Source of the DNA: Gammaproteobacteria bacterium
GTDB lineage: Bacteria > Pseudomonadota > Gammaproteobacteria > SZUA-229
DNA length: 50,058 nt
Reading direction: 5' to 3'
NCBI GenBank assembly: GCA_003228405.1
Contig: QIDK01000044.1
Location: 1 to 50,058 of the forward strand
In this document: positions 3,235-50,058 of the stretch, piece after piece
Layout: each line of letters begins with the position of its first letter
Position numbering within the stretch: position 1 is the first letter of the stretch
Program-made: the position numbers and the translations under genes
The notes under the pieces: generated by a model
Told to the model about the DNA's origin: nothing
The model's input: only the letters and a program-made list of their open reading frames with translations
Databases searched by the model: none

Positions 3235-4071
3235 ATGCAACAAGCACAGTTAAAAAACATTTTAGAAGCTATTTTGCTCACTGCCGACCAGCCAATGGAA
3301 ATACGCAAGCTGGAAGCCTTATTTGAGGCTGATGAGGAGCGTCCCACCAGTGATGGTATTTTGCAGGCACTACAAAGTCTGCAGGCAGACTACACTGGCA
3401 GAGGAGTTGAGTTAAAAGAAGTCGCCAGTGGTTATCGTATGCAGGTAATAGCAGATACGGCCACCTGGGTGTCGCGTATGTGGGAAGAAAAGCCGCCTCG
3501 ATATTCAAGAGCACTACTCGAAACACTGGTGCTTATAGCCTACCGTCAGCCGATTACCCGGGGTGAAATTGAAGAAATTCGTGGCGTAAGCGTGAGTAGT
3601 CATATTATGAAAACGCTGACAGAGCGTGAGTGGGTTAAGGTGCTGGGGCATAAAGATGTTCCGGGCAGGCCCTCTATGTTTGGCACAACCCGTGATTTTC
3701 TGGATTACTTTAATCTGAAAAACCTGGATGACCTGCCCAGCCTGGCGGATATTACGGATCTGGATAAATTGCATCCAGAGCTGGCACTGGAGCAGGAAGT
3801 GTCGGCTGATGAAGAGAACCCGGAAAATTCAGAAAACGCAGAGAGCCCAGACAGTTCAGACAGTTCAGACAGTTCAGACAGTTCAGACAGCTCAGACAGC
3901 TCAGACAGCTCAGACAGTTCAGACAGTTCAGACAGTTCAGACAGTTCAGACAGTTCAGAGAGTTCAGAGAGTTCAGAGAGTTCAGAGAGTTCAGAGAGTT
4001 CAGAGAGTTCAGATGCGTCTGCATTAGATACGGATACAGTTGAAAAGAAGCAGGAATCGATAATAGAATAA
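3235..4071 (+). CDS. scpB: Segregation and condensation protein B with an acidic Ser-rich repeat tail
   Basis: LEAILLTADQPM and IAYRQPITRGEIEEIRGV are canonical ScpB winged-helix motifs. The C-terminal roughly 80 aa are an extension containing (DSS)12(ESS)6. Confidence 0.9.
   Translation: MQQAQLKNILEAILLTADQPMEIRKLEALFEADEERPTSDGILQALQSLQADYTGRGVELKEVASGYRMQVIADTATWVSRMWEEKPPRYSRALLETLVLIAYRQPITRGEIEEIRGVSVSSHIMKTLTEREWVKVLGHKDVPGRPSMFGTTRDFLDYFNLKNLDDLPSLADITDLDKLHPELALEQEVSADEENPENSENAESPDSSDSSDSSDSSDSSDSSDSSDSSDSSDSSDSSDSSESSESSESSESSESSESSDASALDTDTVEKKQESIIE
3850..4011 (+). repeat. 18 tandem copies of a 9-bp in-frame repeat inside scpB
   Basis: Counted by hand: 4x GACAGTTCA, 3x GACAGCTCA, 5x GACAGTTCA, then 6x GAGAGTTCA. 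This encodes (DSS)12(ESS)6. Confidence 0.95.
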
Positions 4072-4425: not shown

Positions 4426-4671
4426 ATGGTTATGGGCGTATTGTCAGTTCAAAGTGAAGCAGTGCAGGGCATTCAGCGGGGTCTGGACGGCCTGCGAAAA
4501 AATGCATCAGAAATAGCCTCTGCTGATCAGCTAAATAAAGCTGGAGAGGGTACAGACCTTGTGGGTGCCCTGGTGGATTTGCAGCAGAATAAGATACAGG
4601 TTCAGGCATCAGCCAAGGTGGTTTCTGCAGTTGATGAAGTAATCGGCACCATTATCGATATCCGAGCGTAA
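4426..4671 (+). CDS. Small protein with a flagellar basal-body rod/hook C-terminal-like segment
   Basis: 81 aa, with GGAG 5 nt upstream of the ATG. The C-terminal TDLVGALVDLQQNKIQVQASAKVVSAVDEVIGTIIDI follows the pattern of FlgB/C/G C-terminal domains (vdl.eemv.li.aqrayeanskvi.t.demlgtl.di). Confidence 0.5.
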   Translation: MVMGVLSVQSEAVQGIQRGLDGLRKNASEIASADQLNKAGEGTDLVGALVDLQQNKIQVQASAKVVSAVDEVIGTIIDIRA

Positions 4672-4722
4672 CGGCTCCAGTTACAGACTTCAGCACAGCA
4701 AGTACTCCACAAAAAGTACTTT

Positions 4723-5436
4723 ATGATAGTAAACAGCGCACAAAAAGTTCAAGTCAGCAATCCGCTGGATACCAGCTCACCCCGTCGAGTTGATGATAAT
4801 TCTCGTTCATCTAATGTAGATCCCCAAGATAAAGCCGCCGTGGCAAAACAGAAACAGCAGAGTGATGCTGTGGTGCGTGAGCTGCGGGCCAGAGACCGTG
4901 AGGTAAGGGCACATGAATCCGCACATGTGTCGGTGGGTGGAAGCCTGGTGCTGAGTGGCCCGACGTTTACGTTTCAGACGGGCCCGGATGGTCGCTCTTA
5001 TGCAATTGGTGGCGAAGTTAAGCTGGATGTCTCCCCGGTTGCCAATGATCCTGCTGCTACGGTAGACAAGGCAGGGCTAATTCGTGCTGCTGCTCTGGCA
5101 CCGGCCAAACCCTCACCACAGGACTTAAGCGTTGCTGCAAACGCAAATAAGCTGGCAGCCAGAGCACGGGTCGATTTAGCCATATTGCGCAGAGATGAAG
5201 CCGAGCTGGATCGAGAACAGGAACAGTTAAATAATGCGTCAGATACAAATGATGTATCAGATAGCAGTGCAAATAATGCGTCAACAGAATCACAAACAGA
5301 TATTCCCTTAGCCCCCGCATCAAGTGTCGATTCAGCAAATTTACAGAGTATCGAGCCCCCAGCAACTGCAATTAATGCCTTTAAATCAATCACTCAGCCT
5401 GAGTCTGCACCGGCTTTAGTCAACCAGTTCGTCTGA
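4723..5436 (+). CDS. SprA-related / CJM1_0395-family putative metalloprotease
   Basis: REVRAHESAHVSVGG...PTFTFQTGPDGRSYAIGGEVKLDVSP...AAALAPAKPSPQDLSVAA matches the remembered family signature (EVxAHExAH..GG...GPDGxxYAxGGEV.ID...AALAPAxPSxQD). Confidence 0.8.
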   Translation: MIVNSAQKVQVSNPLDTSSPRRVDDNSRSSNVDPQDKAAVAKQKQQSDAVVRELRARDREVRAHESAHVSVGGSLVLSGPTFTFQTGPDGRSYAIGGEVKLDVSPVANDPAATVDKAGLIRAAALAPAKPSPQDLSVAANANKLAARARVDLAILRRDEAELDREQEQLNNASDTNDVSDSSANNASTESQTDIPLAPASSVDSANLQSIEPPATAINAFKSITQPESAPALVNQFV

Positions 5437-5437
5437 A

Positions 5438-5483
5438 CCGGGCTTATTTGATTGTATTGCCCGGCAACAGGTATCTGTTTTTT
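5438..5483 (+). terminator. Candidate rho-independent terminator (two hairpins plus a T-run)
   Basis: Hairpin CCGGGC-15 nt-GCCCGG is followed by AACAG-gtat-CTGTT and TTTT. It starts immediately after the stop at 5436. Confidence 0.5.
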
Positions 5484-5569
5484 GAGGGAATTAAAGCTTA
5501 CTCCAGCTGCGAACCAGCTAGTAGAAATAGAAAATGCCCCGGCCAGATAATGGTTAACCGGCCAAGTGC

Positions 5570-5863
5570 CTATTGCCGGGTAATGCTGCCCGCCAGCAAA
5601 TAACAGTTGCCATCTTTTTCTTCACAGCGTAACACTTCCATTACAATTTCAAGCGGTGGGGTAACATTATTTTCAGGTTGTATTGATACACACACCTCAG
5701 TACCCGGCTCAACGGCCTGGTCTGCAACAATGGAGATGCCATCACCGCTTAAGTCACTGACGGTACCCGATTTTTGCTGAGCAGAGCCATTAATGGTGTA
5801 TTCAGCTATACATTCCAGGTTCATGCGGAAGAAGTTACGTTTTTCAGAGTAGTCTTTAGCCAT
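5570..5863 (-). CDS. PilZ domain protein (c-di-GMP receptor type)
   Basis: 97 aa. It has the RNFFR (RxxxR) and DLSGDG (D/NxSxxG) PilZ motifs at the expected spacing. Confidence 0.8.
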   Translation of the reverse strand: MAKDYSEKRNFFRMNLECIAEYTINGSAQQKSGTVSDLSGDGISIVADQAVEPGTEVCVSIQPENNVTPPLEIVMEVLRCEEKDGNCYLLAGSITRQ

Positions 5864-5986
5864 AGAATTCCCGTCTGTTGTCTTACTTGATTAATCCAGT
5901 ACTGCTACCAGCTGTTATCAGTGTAGAACTGAGAAAATCTAAAATCTACGCCATTTATCCGGTTTTGTGAAGAAAATCTACTATAT

Positions 5987-7114
5987 CTAGTGGAATTTTT
6001 TTGTCATAGACACAATATTGGCATTGGTTGAAGGCTGTTCGATTTCATAGGGCCAGTCACGAATGCCGCCTTCCAGCAACAGGGTCTCAAAATGGTGTTC
6101 ATGCAGCAATAGAGCCGCAACTGCACTCCTCGGGCCAGAATGGCAGTAGATAATATAGGGCTGTTTTTTACTTAATTCGGCAAGCTTGTCACTTAATTCA
6201 GAGAGTGGAATGAGCTTTGCACCGGGTATCCGACTTTCAGCATATTCCTCAGGAAAGCGTACATCCAGTAGCTTATAGCCATTGTCCAGCATGGTTTTTG
6301 CAACCTGTGCCTGTACGGTTTGCACCTCGGGGCGGCTAACGAGCTGCTGATAGTCGCTTTTGCCTAATATCAGAATTTCACTGTCTTCAAGCAGGGTGAT
6401 GGTTTCATCTGTATTTTTGCCTGATACCCGAACTTCATGACCAAAAATATCCCCCACACCCAGTTCGGTAACCTGTATAAAGCGCTGATTGACCGTGTCG
6501 AATGTCTGCACTTCGGCACGGCCACTTAATATAAGGTAGTAGGCATCACTTTGTTCAGCGGGAATGGTATCACCTTTACTGAAGTGGGATGACCTCATAC
6601 GAGAAAAGGCATTTTCAATATACTCAATCGGCAGACGCTGAAACAACAGGGTATTGCGAATCATATCAATATATTTAACCGTGTTTCGGGTTTTGCGCCC
6701 AATGTGATCCCAGGAGATGATGGTGTCTAAAATTTCACGATTGGCGTGGCTGATAATACAGTCGGTTTTGGCAATAATGCTACAGCTGCTTTTTTTATCA
6801 GGCAGTAAGACCGGGCTGCGCTGGGTTTCCTTTGGGTCACTGATGGTGCGGATGCTGCCTTCAAACACAATATCGATTTCACCTTCCATCAGATACAGGT
6901 AATCGTGGGAAATAGAGCCCCGCATCTGTAATATTTCATCCTGCTGCAATTCGATAATACGAATATGATTAACAATTTCCTGCAGGCGTTCAGGGCTTAA
7001 ATGGTTAAAAGGAAAATAGAGATTGCTCAGTTTAAACAGAACTTTTTTCAGTTTGGTACTTATAGTCATAACGGCAGATGCTTGATTGCGACGGCTTAAA
7101 ATTAAATTGATCAT
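5987..7114 (-). CDS. Cyclic-nucleotide-binding-domain (x2, degenerate) / rhodanese-domain protein
   Basis: Two cNMP-binding-like beta-barrel regions (GDIFGHE in the second). The C-terminal rhodanese domain has the active-site loop CHSGPRS and LLDVRFPEEY. The start could instead be Met16. Confidence 0.75.
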   Translation of the reverse strand: MINLILSRRNQASAVMTISTKLKKVLFKLSNLYFPFNHLSPERLQEIVNHIRIIELQQDEILQMRGSISHDYLYLMEGEIDIVFEGSIRTISDPKETQRSPVLLPDKKSSCSIIAKTDCIISHANREILDTIISWDHIGRKTRNTVKYIDMIRNTLLFQRLPIEYIENAFSRMRSSHFSKGDTIPAEQSDAYYLILSGRAEVQTFDTVNQRFIQVTELGVGDIFGHEVRVSGKNTDETITLLEDSEILILGKSDYQQLVSRPEVQTVQAQVAKTMLDNGYKLLDVRFPEEYAESRIPGAKLIPLSELSDKLAELSKKQPYIIYCHSGPRSAVAALLLHEHHFETLLLEGGIRDWPYEIEQPSTNANIVSMTKKFH

Positions 7115-7160
7115 TTAGTATAGACGAGAAAAATACAGGCTGCTGTTAAACAGTGCACGA

Positions 7161-7946
7161 TTATCTGGGCTCGAGCCTGAACTCAGATGGCGAAAGATCC
7201 TGAGTATCAACTGATTTTAATAGCAGGTGTTCGCTAATCTTTTTATCCTGATAATTAATACTTTCAATCACAACCCCCGGCATCTTTTGCTGGTCATAGT
7301 CTATTAGTCTGAACCGGGTGTTTCCCATGGCTAACATCAGTCGGCTTTGCATGCTGTAGTTAAAAGCATAAAAGCTGCGCAATGTGCGGTATTCTTCTGT
7401 GGTCATTTTCAGTGAGCTGGCATCGGCCAGGCAGAAATCCATTAATAATAGAGAATCTTGATATAGCTGGTAAACCTGGCAATTGATGGCATTAATTTCT
7501 TTTTGCTTCGCCGGTTTTTTTATTTTTAGCTGAGTATATTCCCCATACATTTCCGGGTATTTCAATAAATTAATCAGCGATTCTCCAACTTTCCTCTCCT
7601 CAGATTTCATCGTCTGTAATTTGTCTGCCAGCTGCTTTTCAACCTGGGCCAGCTTTTTCAGACGCTGAGCATTCAGCTGGCTAACCCGCTGATCTAAAAT
7701 GGACTCATTAAACATTGAGCTTTTGCCTGAATCAGGGTCGAAGCTAATGAATTGCTGTTTTTTCTGGTTGAACAGGTTAATTCGATTTTGGCCAGACACG
7801 GTGAATTTCAGCTGATCATCTTTTATGCGGTATGTAATAAGGTGTTTGCCCTGCTTGCTTGCCTGGTCTTTTAATATCAGAGTTATGTCTGCAGTCGCGT
7901 AATGGCTGCTAGAAAGTAGTACAATAGATAGTATTATTTTTTTCAT
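7161..7946 (-). CDS. Secreted hypothetical protein with a central coiled-coil
   Basis: Signal peptide MKKIILSIVLLSSSHYATA. AT-rich gene. I recognise no motif. Confidence 0.6.
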   Translation of the reverse strand: MKKIILSIVLLSSSHYATADITLILKDQASKQGKHLITYRIKDDQLKFTVSGQNRINLFNQKKQQFISFDPDSGKSSMFNESILDQRVSQLNAQRLKKLAQVEKQLADKLQTMKSEERKVGESLINLLKYPEMYGEYTQLKIKKPAKQKEINAINCQVYQLYQDSLLLMDFCLADASSLKMTTEEYRTLRSFYAFNYSMQSRLMLAMGNTRFRLIDYDQQKMPGVVIESINYQDKKISEHLLLKSVDTQDLSPSEFRLEPR

Positions 7947-32238: not shown

Positions 32239-32315
32239 TGGCGTCCCCGAGACGATTCGAACGTCCGACCTACCGCTTAGGAGGCGGTGGCTCTATCCTG
32301 CTGAGCTACGGGGAC
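32239..32315 (-). tRNA. tRNA-Arg (anticodon CCT)
   Basis: Hand-folded cloverleaf on the minus strand: GTCCCCG/TA/GCTC-AGCAGGATA-GAGC/C/ACCGC-CTCCTAA-GCGGT/AGGTC/GGACG-TTCGAAT-CGTCT/CGGGGAC/G/CCA. It is 77 nt with an encoded CCA. Confidence 0.9.
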
Positions 32316-49537: not shown

Positions 49538-49565
49538 TTGACCAAAAACCAGCTATCTCTATAAT
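49538..49565 (+). promoter_or_regulatory. Strong sigma70, stringent-type promoter for the tRNA cluster
   Basis: TTGACC (49538-49543), a 16-nt spacer, TATAAT (49560-49565), then the GC-rich discriminator AGCGCCCTC. This resembles rrn P1-type promoters. It lies 37 nt upstream of tRNA-Gly. Confidence 0.6.
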
Positions 49566-49602: not shown

Positions 49603-49677
49603 GCGGGTGTAGCTCAGCGGTAGAGCATCTCGTTGCCAACGAGAATGTCGTGAGTTCGATCCTCATCACCCGCTCCA
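49603..49677 (+). tRNA. tRNA-Gly (anticodon GCC)
   Basis: Hand-folded: GCGGGTG/TA/GCTC-AGCGGTA-GAGC/A/TCTCG-TTGCCAA-CGAGA/ATGTC/GTGAG-TTCGATC-CTCAT/CACCCGC/T/CCA. 75 nt. Confidence 0.92.
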
Positions 49678-49720: not shown

Positions 49721-49747
49721 AAAACCTCGCCAGCCGAGGTTTTTTTA
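49721..49747 (+). terminator. Rho-independent (potentially bidirectional) terminator between tRNA-Gly and tRNA-Cys
   Basis: AAAACCTCG-ccagc-CGAGGTTTTTTT: a 5-bp GC-rich stem extended by an A/T tract, with a T7 run. Confidence 0.6.
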
Positions 49748-49762
49748 TTTATGACCCATCAG

Positions 49763-49836
49763 GGCGGGATAGCAAAGTGGCCATGCAGTTGATTGCAAAT
49801 CAATCTACCTCGGTTCGACTCCGGGTCCCGCCTCCA
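49763..49836 (+). tRNA. tRNA-Cys (anticodon GCA)
   Basis: The GGCGGGA acceptor pairs with TCCCGCC. The anticodon arm is CAGTTGATTGCAAATCAATCT (loop ATTGCAAAT context), the T-loop is GGTTCGACTCC, and a 3' CCA is encoded. 74 nt. Confidence 0.9.
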
Positions 49837-49850
49837 TTTTAAAACCGCCT

Positions 49851-50058
49851 GCCCGAGTGGCGTTGTGGTAGACGATCGTTGTCAAACGATCGCTATCAGC
49901 AATGCAAATAGGGTTTAAAAGTAGTAAGAAGTCATCTGCCCAGGTGGCGTTGTGGTAGACAATCGTTGAAAACGATAGGTATCAGCAATGCAAATAGGGT
50001 TTAAAAGTAGTAAGAAGTCATCTGCCCAGGTGGCGTTGTGGTAGACAATCGTTGTCAA
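49851..50058 (+). repeat. Tandem array of tRNA-Leu-derived pseudo-units (87, 86 and a 35-nt partial), truncated by the window end
   Basis: Units start at 49851, 49938 and 50024. Each begins GCCC(GA/AG)GTGGCGTTGTGGTAGAC, which matches a tRNA-Leu acceptor 5' strand plus D arm. A hairpin with an ATCGTT/AACGAT core follows, then TATCAGCAATGCAAATAGGGTTTAAAAGTAGTAAGAAGTCATCT. There is no complementary 3' acceptor strand and no T stem. Confidence 0.85.

Follow-up and report, generated by a model that had tools for sequence, protein, structure and literature searches.

What occupies the place of the leucine tRNA gene at the end of a 50,058-nucleotide stretch of contig QIDK01000044.1? Positions 1–50,058 of this contig (Gammaproteobacteria bacterium, SZUA-229, assembly GCA_003228405.1) were analyzed and are referred to here as the window. 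The window ends inside a tandem array of units that begin like tRNA-Leu and follow a tRNA-Gly and a tRNA-Cys gene. An earlier note on this sequence proposed that the array replaces the expected tRNA-Leu. Comparison with related loci gives a different answer. The array is a leader element located 5' of tRNA-Leu(UAA), not a substitute for that tRNA, and its structured repeat unit (the module) has no description in Rfam or in the literature searched. The reading preferred here, with a probability of roughly 55%, is that the modules act at the RNA level as a cis module of the Cys-Leu precursor, mimicking the 5' strand of the tRNA and able to pair around it.

The 17-mer GTGGCGTTGTGGTAGAC is present in three of 80 pgsA-linked loci, in each case directly 5' of, and in register with, a genuine tRNA-Leu(UAA) gene. 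The family was collected by scanning one genome per GTDB species for exact copies of this 17-mer, which returned 112 stretches. About 50 of these contain the full GCCCRGG prefix and a hairpin, and all are from Gammaproteobacteria metagenome-assembled genomes (MAGs). Some 60 matches were set aside as chance, as they come from unrelated phyla and have neither the GCCCRGG prefix nor a tRNA context. The carriers span Arenicellales, Thiotrichaceae, Pseudomonadales, and Lysobacterales and are uncultured, apparently mostly marine and sediment bacteria. Where the flanks are visible, the units neighbor tRNA genes, and almost always these are tRNA-Cys on one side and tRNA-Leu on the other. The usual order is tRNA-Gly(GCC), tRNA-Cys(GCA), one to nine or more units, and tRNA-Leu(UAA), all on one strand. 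Locus L153 is an exception, with tRNA-Ala and tRNA-Glu upstream of its units. A single unit is present in 28 of the 50 loci, and the maximum is nine when units are counted by pattern and about 12 when they are counted with the model (L124).

A locus was treated as informative for the position of tRNA-Leu when at least 140 nucleotides of sequence follow its last unit. The 5' end of tRNA-Leu(UAA) lies 68–94 nucleotides past the start of the last unit in all 45 informative loci. The array nearest to that of the window (L087) has four units followed by an intact tRNA-Leu(UAA), which contradicts the proposed replacement. Because the last module precedes this gene in register in every informative relative, a tRNA-Leu(UAA) gene is strongly predicted from the relatives and almost certainly lies just past the window end. 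The end itself is probably a contig break in a repeat, as had been suggested. An exact 48-mer of the unit has no match in the genome contigs searched for the continuation. A search by way of pgsA returned a 1-kb contig only, and a metagenome scan for the tail followed by a tRNA start returned 16 relatives, the host itself being absent.

The module is composed of four parts. Part (i), nucleotides 1–23, reads GCCCRGGUGGCG-UUGU-GGUAGAC and is the same as tRNA-Leu(UAA) at nucleotides 1–12 and at GGUAGAC. The D-loop is UUGU in the module versus AAAUU in tRNA-Leu(UAA), and A14 is gone. Part (ii) is a hairpin (P2) of 7–8 base pairs that begins 0–2 nucleotides past nucleotide 23. Its loops are mainly GNA triloops (CGAAG 10 times, UGAAA 6 times) or GNRA-like tetraloops. 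Part (iii) is a purine-rich linker that evolves fast, is poorly alignable across species, and frequently contains a GGGY patch (roughly 60% of units, as estimated by eye). Part (iv) is a tail reading CCAUCU, UCAUCU, CCAUCC, CCACCU, or CCGCCU, located 0–11 nucleotides ahead of the next GCCC. The tail is the complement of nucleotides 5–10 (RGGUGG) of the following module or of the tRNA. It ends in U in GCCCAGG-type loci and mostly in C in GCCCGGG-type loci. An easily searched marker of the module is GCCCRGGTGGCGTTGTGGTAGAC followed by the hairpin.

The units had been described as tRNA-Leu-sized, with a tRNA-Leu-derived 5' end but no cloverleaf, and this description holds. Nucleotides 1–12 and GGTAGAC match the tRNA-Leu(UAA) of relatives, and the module is conserved in about 50 genomes, far beyond chance. 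ARAGORN finds no tRNA in the array (49851–50058), and no Rfam family, RF00005 included, matches it even at E ≤ 10. Likewise, Rfam 15 reports only tRNA and Intron_gpI in seven complete related loci. A functional tRNA-Leu was sought in the unit, which contains no CCTGGGC 3' acceptor strand, no T-arm sequence, and no CCA. The normal tRNA core requires A14, which pairs with U8. Since UUGU replaces AAAUU and A14 is lost, the module cannot be a working tRNA. The likeness to tRNA stops at nucleotide 23, beyond which alignment, the T-arm and variable-arm regions included, is no better than shuffles (mean z = −0.4). The sequence GGGTTTAAAA is indeed present at the T-arm offset, but its interpretation as a T-arm remnant has no statistical support, with no likeness past nucleotide 23. 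The conservation pattern of the module agrees with the earlier view that this is not simple pseudogene decay. Literature searches on repeats upstream of tRNA-Leu, on fragments of tRNA genes, and on alternative acceptor stems gave no description of the module.

The P2 hairpin is conserved as a structure. When 38 distinct units are aligned without gaps, 88.8% of the P2 cells are paired; slid registers, used as a control, pair at 53% or less. Double-sided changes are found in 52 cells, compared with 16.2 in column shuffles, and none of 500 shuffles was as high. RNAalifold recovers the P2 helix from the alignment of full-length units as well. P2 contains 16 U.G pairs versus 1 C.A, and therefore the helix forms on the plus (tRNA) strand, as RNA or single-stranded DNA, and not on the complement. 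P2 had previously been compared to an anticodon arm with a variable anticodon. That comparison does not fit a stem of 7–8 base pairs with GNA or GNRA-like loops in which the whole stem covaries between species. A covariance model (R1) built on nucleotides 1–46 gives the units 33–70 bits, whereas no real tRNA-Leu gene exceeds 20 bits, and it finds no stray copies in the 594 kb of control loci and the window. The tail also shows a nonrandom pattern. A perfect 6-nucleotide complement to nucleotides 5–10 of the next copy occurs within the last 25 nucleotides in 40 of 48 loci (shuffles: mean 9, maximum 17), which is suggestive of pairing.

In the window, Tandem Repeats Finder reports a direct repeat at 49849–50055 with a period of 86, 2.4 copies, 93% matches, and a score of 365. 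The three units abut with zero spacer. They start at 49851 (87 nucleotides), 49938 (86 nucleotides), and 50024 (35 nucleotides visible, where the window stops), as the earlier note had stated. The last 50 or so nucleotides of units 1 and 2, reported there as identical, are nearly so; a single base differs. Other differences between units are at nucleotides 5–6 (GA versus AG), at nucleotide 24, in the hairpin loop (GTCA versus GAA), and at 2–3 nucleotides past the hairpin. Unit 3 is a mosaic of the unit 2 5' arm and the unit 1 loop. No further copies of the unit were found in the 50-kb window beyond the array. The features of the array and of the tRNA genes that precede it are as follows.

49538–49565, plus strand: candidate sigma-70-like promoter, TTGACC-16-TATAAT, with 11 of 12 consensus matches, 5' of tRNA-Gly

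49603–49677, plus strand: tRNA-Gly(GCC), found by ARAGORN; Rfam tRNA 69.7 bits

49721–49743, plus strand: intrinsic-terminator-like hairpin and T run between tRNA-Gly and tRNA-Cys, 19 nucleotides 5' of tRNA-Cys

49763–49836, plus strand: tRNA-Cys(GCA), found by ARAGORN; Rfam tRNA 57.6 bits; the array begins 14 nucleotides past its CCA end

49851–49937, plus strand: unit 1, 87 nucleotides; R1 47.2 bits; pseudo-5' segment GCCCGAGTGGCGTTGTGGTAGAC at 49851–49873

49873–49892, plus strand: P2 of unit 1, CGATCGTT-GTCA-AACGATCG, 8 base pairs with a 4-nucleotide loop, from sequence, fold, and family covariation

49893–49914, plus strand: post-hairpin strand of unit 1, with predicted pairs of CTATCAGCAATGC with GCGTTGTGGTAG (49860–49871) and of GGGT (49911–49914) with GCCC (49851–49854)

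49932–49937, plus strand: tail of unit 1, TCATCT, complementary (G.U included) to AGGTGG, nucleotides 5–10 of unit 2

49938–50023, plus strand: unit 2, 86 nucleotides; R1 50.2 bits; pseudo-5' segment at 49938–49960

49962–49976, plus strand: P2 of unit 2, ATCGTT-GAA-AACGAT, from sequence

49997–50000 and 50018–50023, plus strand: GGGT and tail TCATCT of unit 2, from sequence

50024–50058, plus strand: unit 3, 35 nucleotides to the window end (pseudo-5' segment and start of P2); R1 41.5 bits, 3' truncated

Upstream of these, Pfam identifies a response regulator (uvrY-like), uvrC, and pgsA in that order, and together with the ARAGORN calls this bears out the uvrY-uvrC-pgsA-tRNA-Gly-tRNA-Cys order given before. 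The host is not enteric. The nearest pgsA genes are from uncultured Thiotrichaceae and other Gammaproteobacteria MAGs at 70–79% identity. The promoter at 49538–49565 is a candidate for the start of the tRNA operon transcript. A scan of the window sequence found no consensus promoter 3' of the terminator-like hairpin at 49721–49743. Locus L100, unlike the window, has a clear TTTACA-17-TATAAT promoter ahead of tRNA-Cys. Inside the units of the window and of L100, no sigma-70-like site was found on either strand, and no GC-rich hairpin followed by a T run was found. In the relatives, the units lie between tRNA-Cys and tRNA-Leu on the strand of these genes.

Other classes of element were considered for the units and rejected. 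The unit period in relatives is 68–94 nucleotides and mostly not a multiple of 3; therefore, the units are not coding, and the mechanically listed open reading frames (ORFs) at 49793–49918 (plus strand) and 49915–50058 (minus strand) were rejected on the same basis. A CRISPR array was rejected because the units abut and the whole 86 nucleotides repeat. A dispersed repeat (REP or MITE-like) had been named by the earlier note as an outcome contrary to its proposal. No other copy exists in the window or in the 594 kb of control loci, and family members with visible flanks lie beside tRNA genes. A viral origin was searched for in IMG/VR, where the 17-mer matches are four chance coding hits, and by blastn against GenBank phages, which gave none.

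The array in the window folds with a free energy of −71.7 kcal/mol (z = −5.2 versus shuffles). A unit of the clade of the window is predicted to form one long hairpin in which GCCC pairs with GGGU and GCGUUGUGGUAG pairs with CUAUCAGCAAUGC, with P2 at the tip and the purine-rich tail free. For the post-hairpin pairing of unit 1, the duplex z is −3.3, and such an extension is significant in the GCCCAGG-type clade only. Units of the GCCCGGG type are predicted to close by pairing nucleotides 5–10 with their own tail. The tRNA fold is predicted to respond to the unit. Averaged over 32 loci, the seven pairs of the real acceptor stem have a predicted probability of 0.99 when the tRNA is folded by itself and of 0.98 when linker and tail are included; adding the whole unit reduces it to 0.11, a drop that occurs in 31 of the 32 loci. 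In the minimum-energy fold, the 5' acceptor copy of the unit pairs with the 3' strand of the tRNA, and the tail takes the real nucleotides 5–10. This strand-swapped fold is only 2–4 kcal/mol below the unit and cloverleaf folded apart. On these models the design is inherently bistable, with two identical 5' strands facing a single tail and a single 3' strand.

On the preferred reading, the modules would be transcribed within the Cys-Leu precursor and would act as RNA, each folding as a separate stem-loop domain. The 5' acceptor copy and the anti-5' tail of a module would compete with the true 5' strand for the 3' acceptor strand of the tRNA, and this competition would affect the folding of pre-tRNA-Leu(UAA) and its processing by RNase P. 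The modules may come off as small hairpin RNAs of about 86 nucleotides, and the processed tRNA-like small RNA put forward in the earlier note is a possible explanation. Copy number (1 to at least 12) would shift through unequal recombination between the repeated 5' segments. The pay-off could be control of the tRNA-Leu(UAA) supply, help with processing, or a spacer-derived small RNA.

Bacterial RNase P recognizes the acceptor/T-stem stack with a 3' RCCA, and the decoy fold would therefore offer the unit boundary as a cleavage site. This leads to a more specific but doubtful version, in which the locus would be a strand-swap device. The pre-tRNA-Leu(UAA) would toggle between cloverleaf and decoy folds, and the 3' half of the tRNA would guide RNase P to every unit boundary. 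Such a device would meter the supply of tRNA-Leu(UAA), the only one that reads UUA/UUG, and would free a new class of tRNA-derived hairpin RNAs of about 86 nucleotides at a dosage that depends on array length.

Several points weigh against an RNA-level cis module. All carriers are uncultured MAGs. The role of the hairpin may lie at the DNA level, since single-stranded DNA also forms very stable GNA triloops. Prefix (co-transcriptional) folding, which compares pairing of the tail with its own or the next 5' segment, gives a heterogeneous outcome, and the discordant units are few and point both ways on the same choice. The tail variants are transitions only, and the tail pairing evidence is suggestive only because transitions opposite a G/U-rich partner always preserve pairing. 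A universal long stem (nucleotides 10–22 with the post-hairpin segment) was rejected; although the extension is strong in the window and in L087, L155, and L168, only 7 of 48 loci reach significance, and it is thus clade-specific.

The sampling of the family also limits the argument. Most loci were gathered by the exact 17-mer, and the apparent invariance of nucleotides 8–23 is inflated. The unbiased sample comes from the one metagenome scan, in which the pattern was the tail and tRNA start only, and it consists of 16 loci with about 10 usable units. The 17-mer occurs unchanged upstream in five of these loci, and in four more the 23-nucleotide segment deviates at one or two positions. Two loci are decayed (L193 and L200), and L206 is truncated at the locus edge, so that just the 3' portion of a unit is visible. 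The other four (L196, L198, L202, and L203) have the tail without a unit, and therefore the tRNA can do without the module. Between-species identity in this sample is 91% for nucleotides 1–23, 64% for P2, and 63% for the linker.

The origin of the units can be partly reconstructed. Units are near-identical within an array, while arrays differ between species, and decay is frequent in the 5'-most unit, as in L087, L001, and the window (unit 1). The range of copy number, the likeness within arrays, and the decayed 5' units therefore fit unequal recombination between 5' segments. The first unit of L147 retains tRNA sequence to about nucleotide 33. Pseudo or partial tRNA-Leu copies with a UUGU-type D-loop are also present downstream of the real gene in three loci. 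L161 (oriented, 7698–7776) has a 3' partial copy of about nucleotides 10–87, and L172 (oriented, about 2671–2800) has a nearly full copy with T-arm insertions. L099 (about 4437–4830) has two 202-nucleotide tandem copies with the anticodon loop CTGGACT and a T-loop insertion of about 96 nucleotides. Given the additional tRNA sequence in the first unit of L147 and the downstream UUGU copies in these three loci, the units probably derive from a paralog of tRNA-Leu(UAA) that was of the UUGU type and longer.

In L198, all that remains in the spacer is the G-patch, the purine-rich stretch, and the tail, and in L172 the same linker-tail sequence stands before and after its unit. The tail and linker would therefore belong to the leader of tRNA-Leu, and the duplicated segment would comprise this leader plus the 5' end of the tRNA. 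Locus L003 contains a 2.9-kb insert (5126–7800) between tRNA-Cys and the units, with ORFs of 188, 105, 104, and 146 amino acids. The Cys-Leu spacer can therefore accept foreign DNA 5' of the units with the unit-tRNA junction intact.

The same history could be read without any function. The array would then be neutral or selfish, a partial tRNA-Leu duplicate in decay that is kept and expanded only because its repeated 5' segments favor unequal crossing-over and gene conversion. The range of 1 to at least 12 copies among related MAGs, the near-identity of units within an array, the decayed 5'-most units, the relatives with a tail and no unit, and a progenitor with more of the tRNA still visible in L147 all agree with such a duplicate. 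It is nevertheless unlikely, as covariation in the hairpin extends across orders and its G.U pairs are confined to one strand, and nucleotides 1–23 remain at 91% identity while the linker drifts to 63%. The UUGU of the module also differs from the AAAUU of the tRNA in all lineages, a difference that gene conversion from the tRNA would erase, and a lone unit is kept in 28 of 50 loci across Arenicellales, Thiotrichaceae, Pseudomonadales, and Lysobacterales. Function could instead reside in trans, with the units as small RNA genes (sponge, regulator, or decoy) cut from the tRNA precursor and the tandem array setting dosage. This is compatible with everything seen. The units lie on the tRNA strand in a Gly-Cys-Leu operon of the type known for 3'ETS-leuZ (mentioned in PMC7154689). 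Each is a discrete stem-loop domain with a purine-rich single-stranded stretch on its 3' side, and arrays of identical units would increase dosage. Small RNAs of this kind are still a rather improbable explanation. They have no known partner RNA or protein, the most conserved nucleotides (8–23) are buried in a stem in the clade of the window, the single-stranded linker is the least conserved part, and most carriers have one unit only.

Repeated attachment sites, left as scars by integrative elements or phages at tRNA-Leu, were among the explanations listed in the earlier note. Integration into tRNA genes is common and usually leaves a partial tRNA copy as its scar (PMC9897764), UUGU-type copies also occur 3' of the real gene in L161, L172, and L099, and inserts of 0.5–2.9 kb separate tRNA-Cys from the units in a few loci (L003 and L161). 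However, the copied part is the 5' end of the tRNA and not the 3' end, and copies lie about 63 nucleotides apart with no kilobase-sized element between them. The stem covaries freely rather than keeping a protein-binding sequence, and the module is absent from IMG/VR (apart from the four chance coding hits) and from GenBank phages. In the L003 insert, the one large insert inspected, an ORF listing shows only short ORFs, and no integrase was identified, the families of these ORFs not having been searched. Scars are accordingly very unlikely. A mis-joined or collapsed repeat at the contig end would explain why the window stops within the array, since short-read assemblies often break at repeats. 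Such an artefact is extremely improbable given that the three units differ at specific positions and that arrays of 2–12 units lie inside long contigs with unique flanks on both sides in many independent assemblies (for example L100, 149 kb; L124, 348 kb; and L136).

An RNA-level cis module shares features with several known systems. Integration scars are normally 3'-part tRNA copies at the far end of a 9–23 kb element (PMC9897764). Like the attL/attR fragments of integrative elements, the module is a tRNA fragment present as a direct repeat by an intact gene and is not called by tRNA finders. Unlike them, it copies the 5' 23 nucleotides of the tRNA about 63 nucleotides 5' of the next copy and has a covarying hairpin, with no integrase identified and no viral counterpart found. 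The 3'ETS-leuZ of the E. coli glyW-cysT-leuZ operon is a precedent for a spacer-derived RNA (mentioned in PMC7154689). The module likewise belongs to the non-tRNA part of a Gly-Cys-Leu tRNA operon and is apparently under its own selection. It differs in being an internal spacer 5' of tRNA-Leu and not a 3' trailer, and in being tRNA-derived and tandemly repeated, without a known small RNA partner or Hfq binding.

In E. coli, RNase P cleavage can be placed under the control of engineered 5' leaders (PMC8925977), and with external guide sequences an RNA paired to a 3' acceptor-like guide turns into an RNase P substrate (PMC4693268). The natural tail of the module similarly complements nucleotides 5–10 of the tRNA, and in the predicted fold the 3' strand of the tRNA pairs with the upstream copy of its 5' strand. 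Those systems are synthetic, whereas the behavior of the module is a prediction from thermodynamic folding. The period of the array is close to the length of tRNA-Leu plus a short spacer, and the units are head-to-tail on the tRNA strand, as in tandem tRNA arrays and pseudogenes. Unlike these, the module is tRNA-like at nucleotides 1–23 only and has no T arm, 3' acceptor strand, or CCA. The ToxI repeats of type III toxin-antitoxin systems are 36 nucleotides long and precede the toxN endoribonuclease gene. Module repeats also abut directly and could be cut to monomers, but they are followed by a tRNA gene and have no associated toxin gene.

The tRNA-Leu(UAA) gene of some loci is missed by ARAGORN solely through a group I intron in the anticodon loop. 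Rfam places Intron_gpI in this gene at 3923–4135 of L100 (58.5 bits) and at 378–579 of L147 (minus strand, 54.5 bits). The intron is also present in L001 (about 5083–5320), L083, L105, L125, L136, L141, L144, L150, L195, and L206. Three loci without units (L005, L037, and L063) carry it too, and the intron and units are independent. The introns of L136, L141, and L144 hold additional ORF-like sequence on the opposite strand, possibly a homing endonuclease.

Three Porticoccaceae-like loci have another layout 5' of tRNA-Leu(UAA): L011 (about 4960–5096), L015 (about 5124–5291), and L031 (about 4843–4978). Here a pseudo 5' copy with an AAATT D-loop is followed by a conserved, structured-looking stretch of about 110 nucleotides (GATGTGCAGGAKGCACAAGT ... 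AGGCAGGASGCCGATAGCG). The breakpoint is again past GGTAGAC, and the arrangement may be a diverged relative of the module. In L117 (oriented, about 1585–1640), from a Pseudomonadales MAG, the exact 17-mer is followed by the hairpin GGCGGATTTTAATCCGTC and then CCAC. This site lies about 60 nucleotides 5' of an ORF that resembles a poly(A) polymerase or CCA-adding enzyme, and it is either a chance match or a relative.

Elsewhere in the window, a 9-nucleotide tandem repeat (CAGACAGTT, 18 copies) was identified at 3848–4013, within an ORF at 3235–4071 (plus strand). It codes for an acidic low-complexity (SDS)n/(SES)n tail near the C-terminal end of a 278-amino-acid product and looks ordinary. A lone tRNA-Arg(CCT) gene is located at 32239–32315 on the minus strand.

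The arrays have a practical consequence for genomes of this group. They break short-read assemblies where tRNA-Leu(UAA) is expected, and MAGs can therefore wrongly appear to be without that tRNA. If the modules act as RNA, the tRNA-Leu(UAA) gene of these Gammaproteobacteria would carry a conserved cis element derived from a copy of its own 5' end, a situation with few natural parallels. Such an element would bear on how misfolding of a pre-tRNA is avoided or exploited, on how RNase P chooses among competing acceptor helices, and on how the transcribed spacers of tRNA operons gain function.

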